19,901 bases of DNA from contig JBLGBN010000017.1 in the NCBI GenBank assembly GCA_047617745.1, positions 1 to 19,901 on the forward strand, given 5' to 3'. Positions within the stretch are counted from its first letter, which is position 1; every line of letters starts with the position of its first letter. The notes beneath the pieces were generated by a model. That model searched no databases and had not been told where the DNA came from. It worked only from the letters and a program-made list of their open reading frames with translations. The stretch comes from Candidatus Nanohaloarchaea archaeon (GTDB lineage: Archaea; Nanohalarchaeota; Nanosalinia; Nanosalinales; Nanosalinaceae). A program made the position numbers and the translations under genes. Below are positions 510 to 6,504 of the stretch, one piece after another.

Positions 510-725
510 CTATGTAGTATTATTTTCAAGCTGGAGCTTCGCAACGTGGTAGGCGTAGTCTTCTCCGATCACTGGCTCTAACTTGATTTTATCGGAGTTA
601 TCCAGAGAACTGACGACTTCCATCCGTGATTCGTCTCCAAGCTCTTTATCCAGGTCGGGTAAAGGCATCTCCTGGCTCTCCTGCTGGTTAAGTATGCCGA
701 TGGCTTTTGCCTCGATCCTATCCAT
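510..725 (-). CDS. Small hypothetical protein, possible winged-helix fold
   Basis: 71-aa acidic ORF overlapping the primase-helicase stop; GGGTGA SD; helix-helix-helix-hairpin-like pattern. Confidence 0.7.
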   Translation of the reverse strand: MDRIEAKAIGILNQQESQEMPLPDLDKELGDESRMEVVSSLDNSDKIKLEPVIGEDYAYHVAKLQLENNTT

Positions 726-3700
726 TCTGCTTCACCCTGTACTGCTCCTGACCTGCTTCCTTGCGGGTTTCGAACACGCTGTTTTCGTGGATAGCGTCGA
801 GAACTTCTACCTTGTCATATTCTTCACTAACGAGATACTGTGCGTTCTGGATTGGATTCCAGCCGTCGCCTTGGGACAAACTGTGGATGGTTTTGGCTGG
901 TTCGTTCAGTTCTTGCTTCACGGAGTTCACGGATTCACTTTGATTCTGCGAAGGGATGTCCTGGTGTTTATCCGAGTCCTGTTCTTTCTCCTGCCCACCC
1001 TCTTCCGTTTCCTTCGTGTAACGGTGAAGTTCGTGAACCTCGTCATCCTCTTCTTCGTTTTGTTCAATCTCTCTTTTCTTGTCTATCAGGTTGTCTATCT
1101 CTGTTTTGTTGAGGAACTGGATTCCTTTGGGTTCGAGTCTTACTCCGCTTCCTGACTTTGTAGCGACAAGTTTCTCGGCTTTCAGTTTCTGCCATTTCTC
1201 TTTCACGGTTCGTTTGCTGTCGCCGAGTTTCTCTGCCAGTGCTCCGGAAGTATTCGCCTCTCGACCTATCTCCTTCAGGATAAGCAGTTGATCTGCGGAG
1301 AGTTCTTCAACAAGTTCTTCCAGTTTTTCCTGGTCAAGCGTGGTCTTCTCTCGTTCCTCTTTCAATAGGCTCTTCATTCCGAGTCGTTCCATTACCTTCT
1401 CGAAAAACTCCTTGACTCGTTCGACATGCTCTTCTGTAACCGTTATTTTTCCGTCCTCAACTGCGTGTTCAAGGACTGCTTGTGCTACGCAGAGCCGTGT
1501 CAGTTTTTCTCTGAATGCTCGGCTGACTATTGGTATGCTCTGGAAGTTGTAGCCTTTCATCATGTTGCTGGCTTCGACTCTGATTCTCTCCTTCGCATCA
1601 TCAGTGTACTGAATATCTTGTGGTTTCAGGCTCCATGCCCAGAGAACATGCTTCTTGTAGAACTCGTCGCTGTATGGCTTCTCCGAGGCTCTTGCCTGAG
1701 CTATCTCGTCCTCTGTAACATCTTCAGCCATGAATGGGATATACAAATCCCAACGCCGTATGTCAGGCCCTGAACTGAAAGTATTCGTGTCCTTGATTGC
1801 CTTGGCAGGTTTCGGGTAGTGTAGGGAGATCGGTTCTTTCGGCGGATTCATAGCCCCGATAATCCTGACTCTGGCAGGTGCAGAACCTTTGACACTTCGG
1901 TTGACGTTTACTCGCTGGTCTTCGAGTATCTCCCGCAGGTTCTTCATTTCCTCTTCGTGTAGCTGGTTAAGTCCGTCCAGTCCGACCAGTCCCATATCGT
2001 TGAGTGGGAGGACGCCCCATTCGATTACTCTCTGTTCTGTGTTGATGGTGTAGGCCAGTCCTGTTCTGCTGCCTGTTTCTGCGGAAGCGTATTCTCCGAG
2101 CCGGTAGTGGTCTTTGGTCAGTTCCTTTATCTGTTCGGACTTGTATGTTCCTCCGTCTCCGAAGAAAAGTAATCGGAGACTGCCTCGCTGTATTTTTCCC
2201 TCGATATTCGGTATGAGAGGTGGGCTGTGTGCGGTAAGCTGTAAACCTTTTCTGGCTAAAGGTCTACCGACCATGTCCGCAGCGATCATCTCGCAGGCGT
2301 TGTCAACCATCCATTTTTCGTTATATTTCTCGTGTTCTTCTTCGCTAAGTTCTATTTCCTGGAAACTTTGCTCCTCTGGCTCTATCTCATCTCCTATCAG
2401 CACCATTTGGTCGTTGTTGCTGTTGACGTGGACTTCTCCTCTGACTTTGACTGACTTGGAGTTCGGTATTTCTTCGCCTATGAGGTAGGCTGGTATGCTG
2501 TTGTTTTGGTTGGCGTTGAACTGTTCTGTATCCTGTAGAAGGTTCTGGAGCTTCATCCAAGATTTGTCAAGGTATTCTTCTATGGTGTGATTCCAGCTGT
2601 GGTTGTTATTGTCATCGATACAGTCTTTCCTGCTGTTCTTCCATGCGATTATGCTTTTCAGGATGTTATGCTGGTTTTTGTTGGAGAGAAGAAAGCGATG
2701 CAACAATTTCTCTTCCACCATATCTCCTTTCCAGGTCTTGTTACACTTCGGACACTCGGCTGTTACTTTCCATGGGATCGCCATTCCCTGCTTCTGTCCC
2801 TTAATCTTGCCTCTGACAGAAATCCGAATATCTACAAGTTCAGAGTTAACATCAGCAGGGCTGTAAGACCTGTAGACATCAAGGAAATGCCTTGCGTCTT
2901 CTATCAGTTCTTCGAGGTCGTAGCCGTTTTCCGTCGTCCAGTCGTCTAAATCCGCTTTCTCTGGCGTTTCTTCACTCCATTCGTGGACGAGAACTTTATG
3001 CTCCTCTACTAGACTGTCGCCTGTTTGCCGAGCATTCTCCCTACCCGTATCGTCGTTGTCGGTAACTATCAGAATCTGTTTGTAGTTCTTGGCGATACCC
3101 TTGAGTTCGTTGAAGTGCCCTTCAAAGCTTCCGCAGGCTGCAGCAACAGTATCATATCCTGCCTCATAAGCAGAGATGGCATCCGGATAGCCTTCCGTCA
3201 ATATCAGCGTATCGGAACTGTTTCGGAGTAGCTTGTAGATATCGTTTTCCACAAACTCGTTTCCGCTGCTTTTGGCCTGCTGATATTTCTTGTGTTCTTC
3301 CTCTGCGTTGGGATCTCGACACGTTATGAGATAAGGCTGGTCGTTTCTTTCCAGATGCGGAATTAGATATGTGCCGTCTTCCTGTCCTGTCATACCGTAG
3401 TGGATTCCTGCTTCTCCAAGTTTCTCGCCGTACTCCTGTTTCAAGCTGTTGAAAAGCTCTTCATCCATCCAGCCGATTCTCAGGTCTTCAACTGTCTCTC
3501 GACCCCAGTTTCTTCGCTCCTTCAAGTCTTGGTAGTGTTGCTTTTCCAGTTGTTCCTGAGCTTTCTGAACTACTTGTTCCTGTATCTGTCGGATTTCTAT
3601 CCTCTTTTCTCGTTGCTCCGAGCTTTTAGCTTTCTCATCAGGTATTTCTATGTCAAGTCCGTGCTCCTGAATTAGCTGCTTTGCAGCTTCATAGTTGCCG

Positions 3701-3897
3701 ATTCCGTCTCTCTGGGCTATGTAGTTGATGAAGTCTCCGCCTTTAGACTTACAGCTGTGGCATTTCCAGTTTCCTGCTTCGTAGATTTTGAGTGCTGGGT
3801 CGCTGTCTCCACAGATTTCGCAGTTCAGCTTGTTTCCTTCTACATCAGCTACATCTGAGAAATCCAGCTTTCTCTTGACTTTATAGATAAGACTCAT
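718..3897 (-). CDS. Primase-helicase fusion: C4 Zn finger + DnaG-type TOPRIM primase + MCM-like AAA+ helicase + C-terminal winged helix
   Basis: CEIC...WKCHSC..GGDFINY; TOPRIM ILTEGYPD and IVTDNDDTG, then DLDDW; CPKC Zn knuckle; Walker A LLFFGDGGTYKS; SRTGL; GVLPLNDMGLVGLDG; ARVRIIGAMNP; RRWDL (SRFDL-like Arg finger); TSGALAEKLG..RTVKEKWQKLKAEKLV wHTH. Confidence 0.9.
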   Translation of the reverse strand: MSLIYKVKRKLDFSDVADVEGNKLNCEICGDSDPALKIYEAGNWKCHSCKSKGGDFINYIAQRDGIGNYEAAKQLIQEHGLDIEIPDEKAKSSEQREKRIEIRQIQEQVVQKAQEQLEKQHYQDLKERRNWGRETVEDLRIGWMDEELFNSLKQEYGEKLGEAGIHYGMTGQEDGTYLIPHLERNDQPYLITCRDPNAEEEHKKYQQAKSSGNEFVENDIYKLLRNSSDTLILTEGYPDAISAYEAGYDTVAAACGSFEGHFNELKGIAKNYKQILIVTDNDDTGRENARQTGDSLVEEHKVLVHEWSEETPEKADLDDWTTENGYDLEELIEDARHFLDVYRSYSPADVNSELVDIRISVRGKIKGQKQGMAIPWKVTAECPKCNKTWKGDMVEEKLLHRFLLSNKNQHNILKSIIAWKNSRKDCIDDNNNHSWNHTIEEYLDKSWMKLQNLLQDTEQFNANQNNSIPAYLIGEEIPNSKSVKVRGEVHVNSNNDQMVLIGDEIEPEEQSFQEIELSEEEHEKYNEKWMVDNACEMIAADMVGRPLARKGLQLTAHSPPLIPNIEGKIQRGSLRLLFFGDGGTYKSEQIKELTKDHYRLGEYASAETGSRTGLAYTINTEQRVIEWGVLPLNDMGLVGLDGLNQLHEEEMKNLREILEDQRVNVNRSVKGSAPARVRIIGAMNPPKEPISLHYPKPAKAIKDTNTFSSGPDIRRWDLYIPFMAEDVTEDEIAQARASEKPYSDEFYKKHVLWAWSLKPQDIQYTDDAKERIRVEASNMMKGYNFQSIPIVSRAFREKLTRLCVAQAVLEHAVEDGKITVTEEHVERVKEFFEKVMERLGMKSLLKEEREKTTLDQEKLEELVEELSADQLLILKEIGREANTSGALAEKLGDSKRTVKEKWQKLKAEKLVATKSGSGVRLEPKGIQFLNKTEIDNLIDKKREIEQNEEEDDEVHELHRYTKETEEGGQEKEQDSDKHQDIPSQNQSESVNSVKQELNEPAKTIHSLSQGDGWNPIQNAQYLVSEEYDKVEVLDAIHENSVFETRKEAGQEQYRVKQNG

Positions 3898-4196
3898 TAC
3901 TGGTTCACCTGTCGCTTTCTGTTCTTTTCTGAGATTTTGTCTTCCAGCCTTTCTACTGCGTCCTTGGCGTGTTCTACCAATTCCTTTGTATCTTTCTGAC
4001 TACTGAGCCTGCCCGAAGTCTGCTTAATGATCTGACCCCAGTAAAGTGCAGAAGCTGTCATATGAGGTGGTTTATCGGAGTAGAGGCGGTAGACGAGTTC
4101 CCACTTGAACCGTTCCGTTGTAATCTCGACCACAAATCTTTGCCCATATTTTCTGGATTTCTGCATTCTGCTGGTGGCGTCGATAATCTCTGTCAT
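3897..4196 (-). CDS. Hypothetical protein (99 aa, basic)
   Basis: ATG at 4196 in a TGATG overlap with GAGGTGA SD; stop overlaps the primase start (TAATG). Confidence 0.75.
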   Translation of the reverse strand: MTEIIDATSRMQKSRKYGQRFVVEITTERFKWELVYRLYSDKPPHMTASALYWGQIIKQTSGRLSSQKDTKELVEHAKDAVERLEDKISEKNRKRQVNQ

Positions 4197-4363
4197 CAAA
4201 ATTTCACCTCTCTCCAGACGCTTTCTTGTCCGAGGAATGGTTCTTCATGGATATGTTTCCAGAACCGACCGCATTCCTGACATTTCCAGATGCTCTCTGT
4301 TTCAAATCTGTCGACATCATTAAACTCCAGTTCTCCACCGCATTCACAGGTTTTCCCTGACAT
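4196..4363 (-). CDS. 55-aa Zn-ribbon protein (MSGKTCECGGELEFNDVDRFETESIWKCQECGRFWKHIHEEPFLGQESVWREVKF), not in the ORF track
   Basis: CECGG...CQECG motifs; GGAGG SD; TAATG and TGATG overlaps fill the gap exactly. Confidence 0.8.
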   Translation of the reverse strand: MSGKTCECGGELEFNDVDRFETESIWKCQECGRFWKHIHEEPFLGQESVWREVKF

Positions 4364-4611
4364 TACTGATCATCCTCCATGCTATCTACGAATGCGTCAA
4401 CTTGCTTCTTTGCGTCCTCTACCGTCTCAATATGCAGGAAATAAATAGACCGATGGTATTCGACCTCGTCCGAGATTTTCAAGATTTGAAACAGGGCGAA
4501 GTCGTTCTCTGGAAGATATATGTCGAACTCGTAGAAAGCATCTCCCAAAGATACAGTCTTGTGAACCTTCTTCCAGGTGTCGTTACTGTAAACCCTGCAG
4601 TTACTGTACAC
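4363..4611 (-). CDS. Hypothetical protein (82 aa from a GTG start)
   Basis: GGAGGTG 6 nt upstream of GTG at 4611; acidic C-terminus; stop overlaps the next start. Confidence 0.7.
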   Translation of the reverse strand: MYSNCRVYSNDTWKKVHKTVSLGDAFYEFDIYLPENDFALFQILKISDEVEYHRSIYFLHIETVEDAKKQVDAFVDSMEDDQ

Positions 4612-4669
4612 AACTGACACCTCCGAAAAGGGCCGAACCTTTAACAAACGATATATTGAGATGCTCCAT
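4601..4669 (-). CDS. Putative 22-aa micro-ORF (MEHLNISFVKGSALFGGVSCVQ)
   Basis: TAATG overlap with GGAGGTGA 6 nt upstream; ends overlapping the next GTG start. Confidence 0.35.
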   Translation of the reverse strand: MEHLNISFVKGSALFGGVSCVQ

Positions 4670-5205
4670 TAGGAGTCACCTCCATCTTTTGCAGGTTGGA
4701 CGGAGCTCTCGGCGGGCGGATTTTCGTCCGCCTCCTCTTCCACTTCCAGGGGATATACTTGGTCTGGTTCTCTGTCTTCGAAATAGTCGGGGTAAGTAGG
4801 ATTTTCTGCACCTATCAGGCTGTAGTGTTCAATTACTTCCTCGTCCAGCTTGACGATGTAGAAATGGACTGTTCCCATGTGGAAATGGTCTGTCCCACAG
4901 ATACCTATCTGTCTAGTCACATGGTTATGGGAGCTTACCTCCTCTCTGCGAATTGGATTTTCTTCTTCCCAGTGTTCCTCTTTCCACCTTTTGACGAAGT
5001 AGACCCATGTAGCGACGAAATATTCCAGATCATCGTTCCGAGGCATCCAGTTATAGTAGTCCTGGAGTTTGGAAACGGTTACATCAGGATAGCCGTCACT
5101 ATGTTTGTATGTCAGAACCTTATCTACTCGCCTTTCTAATTCTCCTGTCTTTTGATTCTCCCACTCTATTTCCTGCTGGAAAAGAATCTGACATCTAGTC
5201 GACAT
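4669..5205 (-). CDS. Hypothetical mobile-element protein with N-terminal MSTR and a YxHxDGYP motif
   Basis: MSTRCQI...YKHSDGYP; the motif pair resembles an uncharacterised phage/plasmid family as I recall it; AGGTGG SD. Confidence 0.8.
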   Translation of the reverse strand: MSTRCQILFQQEIEWENQKTGELERRVDKVLTYKHSDGYPDVTVSKLQDYYNWMPRNDDLEYFVATWVYFVKRWKEEHWEEENPIRREEVSSHNHVTRQIGICGTDHFHMGTVHFYIVKLDEEVIEHYSLIGAENPTYPDYFEDREPDQVYPLEVEEEADENPPAESSVQPAKDGGDS

Positions 5206-5617
5206 TCTTAACCACCTTCTCCTGCAGTTCCTCCCAGTCGTCGAAGCTGTAGTTTCTGTCTCGCAGGAATTCTATGATCGGTTCTCGTAGTTCCTGACCT
5301 AGTTCTCTTACCTGTCGATTTCTGTCGTTACAGAAAGTTTCAATAATTTTCAGGAACGCCTGAAGTTCATCTTCGATTTCTGGTCGCAGTTCTTCGGGAT
5401 CTTTAGCTTTGCTCCAGCCATTTTCGAAGCAGTGAAGAATGTAAATTTTCGCTTCTTTCCTGCTGCATCCGTCTTCTCGAACTCTCTCGGCGTATTTTTC
5501 TACTGTTCCTCTAAGCCAGTTCTTCTGACCTTCAGCCGAGTTCAAAGGATTACAGAACTCTTCCCGACCTTCGCCATTTCCGTCCTCTTCAGTGTCGAAG
5601 AAGTTGTAGTTACTCAT
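5195..5617 (-). CDS. Hypothetical protein (140 aa from MSNYNFF)
   Basis: Acidic helical ORF; ATG at 5617 overlaps the end of the upstream 44-aa ORF, so the longer 5674 start is unlikely. Confidence 0.75.
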   Translation of the reverse strand: MSNYNFFDTEEDGNGEGREEFCNPLNSAEGQKNWLRGTVEKYAERVREDGCSRKEAKIYILHCFENGWSKAKDPEELRPEIEDELQAFLKIIETFCNDRNRQVRELGQELREPIIEFLRDRNYSFDDWEELQEKVVKNVD

Positions 5618-5744
5618 CGGCCATCCCCCGTGCTTTCTGTACTTCTTCCCTGAGAATAGGATGCAGGGTCTCAACAGCCTCCTCAGAAGCTTTGAGTATA
5701 ACTTCGAGAGCTTCGTCCAGTTTCTCCTCCTCTCTGTGTTTCAC
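5610..5744 (-). CDS. 44-aa helical protein (MKHREEEKLDEALEVILKASEEAVETLHPILREEVQKARGMADE), not in the ORF track
   Basis: GAGGTG SD upstream of the GTG start; acidic amphipathic sequence; overlaps the next gene. Confidence 0.7.
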   Translation of the reverse strand: MKHREEEKLDEALEVILKASEEAVETLHPILREEVQKARGMADE

Positions 5745-5762
5745 CGCAGACCACCTCTGAGA

Positions 5763-5941
5763 AAGTTATGGTTGGCTGCTGGGAGGAGTGTAAGCCGAGA
5801 CCGACAGAAACTTAACAGTTGCCTTATATTACCCACTTATATCACCCTGCACCGTAAATTCAACCGAAGCGGGGTGAAAGCGTGGGCAGGTGGCTCTTGG
5901 TCGGGTAGCCTGTCCTCGCTTTATATTTTTCATCGATTTTT
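5763..5941 (+). ncRNA. Candidate structured antisense RNA (or ssDNA signal) with three tandem hairpins and a U-rich tail
   Basis: Stems 5769-5777/5793-5803 (bulged), 5842-5850/5869-5877 and 5877-5890/5909-5922; G.U pairs form on the + strand but become A-C mismatches on -; T-rich tract 5920-5941. Confidence 0.45.
5829..5933 (-). CDS. Putative 34-aa leader peptide (MKNIKRGQATRPRATCPRFHPASVEFTVQGDISG)
   Basis: ATGA overlap with the RHH stop and GGAGG upstream; runs through the hairpins; basic, atypical composition. Confidence 0.3.
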   Translation of the reverse strand: MKNIKRGQATRPRATCPRFHPASVEFTVQGDISG

Positions 5942-6052
5942 CCTCCAGTATTGATGTAGTTCGTGGATGAATCCGTGGTATGGCTGCGCCTGTCTACGGT
6001 CTTCATCCAGTCTGTTCTTGAGTTTCGTTGGCATCCAGATAGTTGTTGCCAT
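5930..6052 (-). CDS. 40-aa ribbon-helix-helix (CopG/antitoxin-like) DNA-binding protein (MATTIWMPTKLKNRLDEDRRQAQPYHGFIHELHQYWRKNR), not in the ORF track
   Basis: TTIxM strand, LKxRLDxxR helix and Y..FI.EL helix typical of archaeal RHH proteins; TATA 23-32 nt upstream (leaderless). Confidence 0.75.
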   Translation of the reverse strand: MATTIWMPTKLKNRLDEDRRQAQPYHGFIHELHQYWRKNR

Positions 6053-6084
6053 ACTACATAATTCTATAGTAATCTATAAATAAA
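6051..6084 (-). promoter_or_regulatory. TATA box (TTTATTTATA, 6075-6084) with three 10-bp-phased AWWCTAYA repeats (putative operator)
   Basis: ATACTACATA/ATTCTATAGT/AATCTATAAA at 6051, 6061 and 6071, spanning start codon to TATA. Confidence 0.6.
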
Positions 6085-6432
6085 CCCCGTTCCTCCGTCT
6101 AAAATAGTGTAAGTCTGAGCAGACACTTTCGTTTCAGTGTCCGACCTTAGCCAACTACCTTTCCTACCTGTAAAAAACTGTAAGATAATATCGACACTAT
6201 AAAAGCTCAGAAATTGGGTTTTAGATTATAATCGAAGATTTAAGATTGCTTCAAATACGAAGACACTGTATTTTAGCTTCTTCAAAGCTCCAGAATTAAG
6301 AAAATGATACACGCTTTCTCAAGAAATAGCTGAGACAGACTCGTTGAGAATCTAAACAGAAATTTAAGAATTTATGACGAACGGTTGGTTACAAAACCTA
6401 TCTCCCATCCCGCATCGTATCAATAGTAAGGT

Positions 6433-6504
6433 TGCGGCGTCCGGGATTTGAACCCGGGTTGCTGGCTTGGAAGGCCAGAGTCTTAGCCACTGGACCAACG
6501 CCGC
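6433..6504 (-). tRNA. tRNA-Gly(TCC), intronless, CCA not encoded
   Basis: Acceptor stem GCGGCGT/ACGCCGC; anticodon arm CTGGC-CTTCCAA-GCCAG; T arm CCGGG-TTCAAAT-CCCGG; discriminator A. Confidence 0.97.

Follow-up and report, generated by a model that had tools for sequence, protein, structure and literature searches.

The leader of an operon in an integrated nanohaloarchaeal element carries, on its opposite strand, two adjacent hairpins that have kept their base pairing while their letters changed. We consider it very probable that this conserved plus-strand RNA structure is real and, judging from sequence, probable that the RNA is an antisense repressor of the operon. The element is predicted to transcribe a two-hairpin plus-strand RNA of about 90 nt (about 5839-5931, both ends being predictions). 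The window, by which we mean the whole stretch of DNA analysed (19,901 nt), is the whole of contig C17 in an assembly of 834 kb and 34 contigs (G000; 88.6% complete), and related proteins bear nanohaloarchaeal labels in their source records.

The integration site is a tRNA-Gly(TCC) gene (6433-6504, minus strand; ARAGORN and Rfam). Its 3' end supplies the att core, a 15-mer (6433-6447) that also precedes a tyrosine integrase gene in two related genomes, G021 and G032. The G021 element (about 28 kb) comprises the 15-nt copy of the tRNA 3' end, the tyrosine integrase gene, cargo, the operon and the tRNA, and G032 has the same att copy and the start of the integrase at a contig end. The combination of att repeat and tyrosine integrase by which archaeal elements that integrate into tRNA genes are recognised was thus seen in G021 and G032; the G000 contig stops before the integrase end, and a second att copy is absent from that assembly. 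The G021 element spans L011 7093 to L010 15470, its att copy is one base off the resident tRNA, and its cargo looks by eye like heavy-metal resistance genes (P-type ATPases, a reductase and ArsR-like genes). About 66 additional bases, which look like an intron, interrupt the tRNA-Gly of G032 (L009 11986-12130). A second element in G000 (contig C1, about 91500-100900) has small regulator-like ORFs, an integrase and a 743-aa relative of the replication candidate of G032 described below.

The att flank (6168-6432) holds no long ORF and is 94% identical to its counterpart in G032 (L009 11720-11985), an identity between two genera. Contig depth at 6340-6400 is many-fold that of the remainder, and many elements seem to share this stretch. 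A strong plus-strand TATA-like box in the flank (6194-6205; scored in G032, the same 12-mer being present in the window) would, once the element is excised, be directed over the att site and towards the integrase gene. Two imperfect 27-nt direct repeats lie 71 nt apart at 6087-6184, and contigs from runs X21 and X7 skip 6096-6166. In G022, att-flank sequence corresponding to 6336-6459 (L054 6913-7038) adjoins a tRNA-Gly(GCC) that contains an intron; no genes of the element were seen there, and the stretch is perhaps a scar.

To the left of the tRNA runs a chain of overlapping minus-strand ORFs of 40, 34, 31, 44, 140 and 178 codons which, after a single 48-nt gap, continues with ORFs of 85, 55 and 99 codons and a 1059-aa Zn-Toprim primase-MCM fusion (718-3897); the portion from the 140-aa ORF to the primase-MCM occupies 718-5617. 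Among 70 genomes of the order, three (G000, G032 and G021, each from a different genus) encode a close match to the 140-aa protein, and one weak match was seen besides. A preliminary description had placed a control module at the head of a replication operon. The module does head the operon, but a direct tie to the primase-MCM did not hold up, as this gene lies on the same strand six ORFs and 1.9 kb downstream of the leader.

On the plus strand, helix A pairs 5843-5850 with 5869-5876 (hairpin 5843-5876), and helix B (5877-5922) is followed by a U-tract (5920-5930). Helix B is the strongest hairpin of the preliminary description, and its features were all recovered: the arms (5877-5890/5909-5922) form 13 of 14 pairs, one of them G.U, around a predicted UUGGUC loop (5897-5902). 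Folding of 5835-5935 gave -43.1 kcal/mol on the plus strand (z -5.2 against shuffles) and -28.3 kcal/mol on the minus strand (z -2.0), and folds computed as DNA showed a modest strand bias. Among 700 random 92-nt genome windows one reached z<=-5 and one reached -40 kcal/mol; however, since other windows in these leader regions reach z values of -5.5 to -6.2, z alone is not decisive. A third plus-strand hairpin had been described at 5745-5835, but shuffled sequences fold just as well as this stretch (z -0.5 on the plus strand, 0.0 on the minus strand) and G032 does not share the hairpin, so only the adjacent pair (5843-5922) was retained. For the same reason the interval originally singled out for folding, 5745-5945, scored weakly as a whole (z -1.9 plus, -1.1 minus). 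A further hairpin inside the 40-aa gene (5960-6010; z about -6 on both strands) has many synonymous changes in the allele from run X11 and is absent from G032.

No Rfam family, those of CopA and the plasmid antisense RNAs included, matched over the hairpins at E<=10. The apical loop had been read as a YUNR U-turn typical of kissing interactions, an argument that proved weak: by simple arithmetic YUNR is likely in about one-fifth of 6-nt loops, and pMV158 manages without U-turn motifs. CUUGG at the tip of helix B is kept in both alleles, as a short motif common by chance. A 4-bp loop-loop pairing was dropped as seeming geometrically unlikely on stacked helices, which we judged rather than computed.

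The sole full homologue of the hairpins is that of G032, 66% identical over the RNA stretch, and the comparison accordingly involves two full sequences. All 23 pairs of the consensus are kept in both, through three two-sided and five one-sided changes, all five of them passing via G.U; on the minus strand 19 and 18 of the 23 hold. Slid-alignment controls paired 39-59%, and 66 of 500 column shuffles equalled the observed value, which is near the floor for two sequences. Unprompted, RNAalifold returned a plus-strand structure of -33.8 with 24 pairs and a minus-strand structure of -13.6 with 13 pairs. Eleven substitutions in paired columns produced no break where 5.7-7.6 were expected, for a structure chosen with both sequences in view. 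With a structure derived solely from the window, 3 of 28 pairs were broken (8.0-9.5 expected, P 0.001-0.009), and with one derived solely from G032, 5 of 28 (8.3-9.9 expected, P 0.013-0.08). The covariation sought on the strength of the preliminary description appears as compensatory pairs in G032, within the limits of two sequences and that shuffle control.

Divergence is concentrated in the RNA: its 66% identity to G032 compares with 77-85% in the flanks. The X11 allele (a 478-nt contig) aligns at 5701-5850 and 5929-6126, with 87 other letters in place of 5851-5928. A structure that persists while its letters change quickly is consistent with an RNA antisense in cis, since any change in it would also alter its target.

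Promoters were scored with a position-constrained TATA matrix, for which 24 of the 33 regions upstream of tRNA genes served as the training set; it was used in place of a free EM motif, which was too noisy, and a sigma-70 scan was set aside as not fitting an archaeal host. The candidate antisense promoter (5801-5818, plus strand) consists of a conserved 10-mer (5801-5810) and a TATA-like core (5811-5818) with a score of 4.7, in the top 0.36% of genome sites. The aligned site in G032 scores 4.1 (top 0.5%), and both are weaker than 20 of the 24 training tRNA promoters. A start near 5839 is predicted because this gives the 28-nt spacing seen at the 40-aa gene. In both alleles an aligned TATA-like site stands upstream, at a distance of about 30 nt, and a U-tract follows downstream; the combination of a weak TATA with a U-tract suggests an antisense RNA of about 90 nt.

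This RNA would cover one short ORF and the Shine-Dalgarno of another. The 34-codon ORF (5829-5933, minus strand) had been proposed as a coupled micro-ORF. It is present, lies under the antisense RNA and overlaps the stop of the RHH-like gene through ATGA, and its SD-like GGAGG (5946-5942; -8.1 kcal/mol) is in the top 4% of random ATG/GTG sites. Neither its frame nor its sequence is kept in G032, where the equivalent is part of a 57-codon ORF or else a 32-codon ORF lacking an SD, and it was rejected as a conserved peptide. A 31-codon ORF (5741-5836, minus strand), missed by the preliminary description, appears from the sequence to be the better leader candidate. It has the same length, start position and stop/start overlap with the 44-aa gene in the window and G032, beginning with GTG or ATG; the probability of its staying open with start and stop by chance is 0.15. 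Its peptide is evidently unconstrained, because 2 codon changes are synonymous and 15 non-synonymous (2 and 9 in X11), as against 48 and 15 in the 140-aa gene. Four nucleotides upstream lies a Shine-Dalgarno-like site (5841-5848, minus strand), the complement of the RNA 5' arm. With the 16S tail of the genome itself it scores -9.9 kcal/mol in the window and -9.3 in G032 (top 1.0% and 1.7% of 5000 random ATG/GTG), and the 4-nt spacing holds in both alleles despite altered letters. This site argues for the ORF more strongly than its staying intact does, although the G-rich helix may have given rise to it incidentally. From the predicted first AUG, one open frame or another extends across the covered stretch into the 31-codon ORF in both alleles.

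The first conserved gene of the operon encodes 44 aa (5610-5757, minus strand) and has a strong SD (5757-5751; -15.5 kcal/mol) which, with the start, is predicted to be buried in mRNA structure (unpaired 0.19-0.30). Opening the start region would cost 14.0 kcal/mol in the window and 18.2 in G032, compared with 7.6 +/- 3.3 for 82 host genes, 8.1 in G021, where the RNA is lacking, and 23.9 with the X11 changes placed on the window. Shuffled upstream sequence reached costs as high in 57% of cases for the window, 16% for G032 and 1% for the X11 changes, which makes the burial not specific to the sequence in the window or G032, and the burying helix has no two-sided change between the window and G032. 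By eye, a 42-aa ORF in a distant primase-helicase element (G067, L052 4548-4676) resembles the 44-aa gene.

We propose that the antisense RNA pairs with the operon leader and masks the SD of the 31-codon ORF, and that ribosomes which would otherwise open the buried start of the 44-aa gene then fail to arrive. This reading, which would require both strands to be transcribed and the leader ORF to be translated and coupled to the next gene, we rate as quite possible, if a little short of probable; burial of the downstream start is its weakest step. Polarity would carry the effect to the replication gene 1.9 kb on, and the likely purpose would be to restrain the replication operon during the integrated state or once copy number is reached.

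The antisense RNA might instead repress the operon by another route, such as duplex-triggered cleavage (as for Tant/T1 of phiH), premature termination or polymerase collision, with the short ORFs incidental. The RNA structure and its covariation speak equally for this alternative, which has a precedent in haloarchaea in Tant (in the portion of PMC4284463 concerned), and it accommodates a leader ORF without coding signal as well as the very strong SD that the 44-aa gene has of its own. However, it leaves the fixed-spacing SD before the 31-codon ORF in both alleles unexplained. A simple refolding switch was also not found in silico: masking the antisense-covered part left the 44-aa start unchanged (unpaired 0.23 to 0.23 and 0.19 to 0.19), and a refolding attenuator was rejected. 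We regard repression by such a route as possible yet rather unlikely.

The RNA does not follow the primase-MCM. G032 combines it with a different replication candidate (L009 7381-9528), a 715-aa ATPase-like/wHTH protein sharing only the last ~60 residues with the primase-MCM, and has no intact RHH gene; we note this as a replication-gene swap inside the same operon. In G021, with a primase-MCM 94% identical, the slot holds a 70-aa HTH gene and a 325-aa gene, with neither hairpins nor RHH; the 44-aa gene is there without the RNA, the slot between it and the tRNA having been swapped as a block. At the G066 and G013 loci (primase-MCM 50% and 48%) the RNA model gave no hit. A look beside related primase-MCM genes, as the preliminary description had advised, thus failed to find the RNA in G021, G066 or G013, and its single module of repressor, RNA and leader comes apart: no intact RHH gene accompanies the RNA of G032, and G021 has neither. 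Because the RNA does not track with the primase-MCM, we view it as a swappable control part at the operon head.

The same distribution bears on the idea that the hairpins act as DNA (an origin, a primase signal or a protein site) or as a cis structure of the mRNA, with no separate RNA. Stem-loop origins are known in archaeal elements, from pRN1 (parts of PMC3869888) and SNJ2 (parts of PMC13107129), the U-tracts after helix B also score as minus-strand TATA boxes (6.0 in the window, 7.2 in G032), and the strand bias of the DNA folds is only modest. In contrast, every one-sided change gives G.U on the plus strand and an A.C mismatch in the mRNA, the hairpins and the replication protein do not go together from one element to the next, and the origins of pRN1 and SNJ2, as those parts describe them, sit downstream of the rep gene. 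A DNA or mRNA role of this kind appears improbable, and use of the hairpins as an origin of primase-MCM replication is unlikely.

Homologue searches returned little beyond the two alleles. Among 70 genomes the RNA model matched just its two training sequences, and no further homologues were found in the viral contigs, metagenome contigs, plasmids or phages searched; 13 metagenome hits to a loose pattern scored nothing with the model and were discarded. Nine loci of more distant elements and flanks gave no convincing hit with filters off (best E 0.075). An apparent gap in one of these (L050) proved to hold an 86-codon ORF, RHH-like at its end by eye. In G013 (L051 6691-6834) a gap after the first RHH-like gene contains two hairpins (z -5.7 on the minus strand) and a 30-codon ORF overlapping the RHH stop; these hairpins have no sequence likeness to the RNA described here.

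An independent small RNA acting in trans, with a host target, as an antitoxin or on a protein ligand, could also occupy a variable slot, as the block swap in G021 would allow, and nanohaloarchaea do express two-hairpin ncRNAs of unknown role (sections of PMC10266531). Against this, the RNA has changed more quickly than the sequence on either side, the opposite of what a fixed target outside the element would favour, and no exact match to it longer than 12 nt occurs elsewhere in G000. A toxin-like peptide that is conserved is likewise missing, as the short ORFs show no constraint and the 44-aa gene occurs in G021 without the RNA. We think a trans role slightly less probable again than a DNA or mRNA role. 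It is very improbable that the hairpins are a chance fold of GC-rich spacer DNA passed down to two related elements: the z values of the other leader windows, the sample of two and the 66 matching shuffles would allow it, but the 11 paired-column substitutions broke no pair and the structure taken from the window alone still gave P<=0.009.

Upstream of the RNA, the first gene of the leader encodes a 40-aa RHH-like (DUF7557-like) protein, a predicted autorepressor (5930-6052, minus strand). Where a promoter had been postulated before it, the sequence has a TATA-like box (6080-6073) at a distance of 28 nt from the ATG, with a score of 6.4, in the top 0.11% of genome sites by the tRNA-trained matrix; because of this spacing a leaderless mRNA is predicted. 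Overlapping the box is a 5+5 inverted repeat (6078-6065), a candidate operator at which the protein would repress its own promoter. That the gene is coding is supported by synonymous changes in 9 of the 11 variant codons listed from X11 and X21 (20% expected, P 2e-5), a count that covers part of all differences. Its RHH-like assignment comes from the top ranks in the ESM Atlas (an unnamed cluster at 0.93, DUF7557 clusters at 0.92 and 0.91) and an AF2 model with helices at 9-21 and 26-39 after an extended N-terminus (pLDDT 77). On the other side, HHalign gave 18.7%, Pfam, PHROGs and Foldseek returned no match, and nothing useful came from protein search or PDB sequence search. At this position G032 has a shortened, weakly alignable stretch with no intact RHH gene, and G032-like sequence occurs here also in runs X7, X13 and X16. 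More distant primase-helicase elements also begin, by eye, with small RHH-like ORFs. The RHH gene would then be an optional second layer of control.

CopA of plasmid R1 is a two-hairpin counter-transcript of about 90 nt. The R1 order copB-copA-tap-repA recalls the arrangement predicted for the window, with a small repressor gene first and an antisense RNA over the point where ribosomes enter a short leader ORF that is coupled to the gene after it, and R1 works by leader blocking (both from portions of PMC12361487). The SD of the 31-codon ORF lies under the RNA 5' arm as tap lies under CopA. Unlike R1, the window has archaeal promoters and host, belongs to an integrated element and shows no sequence or Rfam match; its coupled gene is a 44-aa unknown with the primase-MCM six ORFs on, the antisense RNA thus being far from the replication gene, and its repressor gene is dispensable in one allele. 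The circuit would work like copA/tap of R1 without being a member, given the lack of a family match and of direct rep coupling. CopG of pMV158 has the RHH fold. There too, in copG-RNAII-repB, an RHH-type repressor heads a replication operon and an antisense RNA lies over a translation start. RNAII differs from the RNA of the window in being 48 nt long with one hairpin, binding by its 5' tail without U-turns and blocking repB directly (in excerpts of PMC4485353).

The Sulfolobales plasmids pRN1 and pSSVx differ from the window in having a two-gene operon and a prim/pol-SF3 protein in place of Toprim-MCM. Counter-transcripts over copG/rep have reportedly been seen in both, and attenuation is said to have been proposed. 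As is predicted for the window, pRN1 (orf56/CopG-orf904) has an autorepressor co-transcribed with a primase-helicase (parts of PMC3869888). A haloarchaeal mobile element, phiH, combines a repressor, Rep, with a cis-antisense RNA, Tant, that removes use of the ribosome-binding site on T1 (sections of PMC4284463 and PMC6210493). In contrast to the window, Tant leads to RNase cleavage of the lytic transcript, those sections mention no leader ORF, and phiH is a Halobacterium virus, not a DPANN element. The RNAs nc0003-nc0005 of Ca. Nanohalococcus are likewise nanohaloarchaeal, 115-155 nt long and described as two-hairpin; they are, however, described as ribosome-associated rather than as element antisense RNAs, and by eye show no clear likeness (sections of PMC10266531). 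Counter-transcripts are also found on haloarchaeal pL6 plasmids (part of PMC11431627). Term look-up for archaeal counter-transcripts gave nothing in the parts covered of PMC4234260, PMC4027180, PMC4379921, PMC9608457 and PMC3462420, and 'antisense' is absent from the main text of bioRxiv 10.1101/2025.02.15.638363. In our literature search, with subscription literature mostly outside its scope, no description of control by antisense RNA or a leader peptide came up for any DPANN element.

The preliminary description had inferred a circuit analogous to those of R1 and pMV158. Covariation and strand bias support a structured antisense RNA, and synonymous changes a real RHH-like gene. The distance to the primase-MCM and the distribution of the RNA in G032 and G021 speak against strict replication control. 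More tentatively, and with less confidence than we place in the masking of the leader SD, a CopA/tap-like circuit may have evolved independently in DPANN, in which an RNA 5' arm resembling an anti-Shine-Dalgarno would shut a sequence-free leader ORF that relays ribosomes to the replication operon. On the main reading already, fast change of the RNA would separate related elements competing for one tRNA-Gly site; on the more tentative one, its structure-keeping divergence would set exclusion groups among elements that compete for this site and freely swap replication genes. As a principle this is not new, and antisense RNA has a precedent among haloarchaeal elements in Tant of phiH. Little is known, however, of replication control in archaeal mobile elements. 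If the proposal is true, it would provide a compact and testable case of bacterial-style control by translational coupling in an archaeon, where a single transcript would carry both leaderless and Shine-Dalgarno genes, and the RNA would be the seed of a new small-RNA family and a control part retained while the replication gene was swapped.
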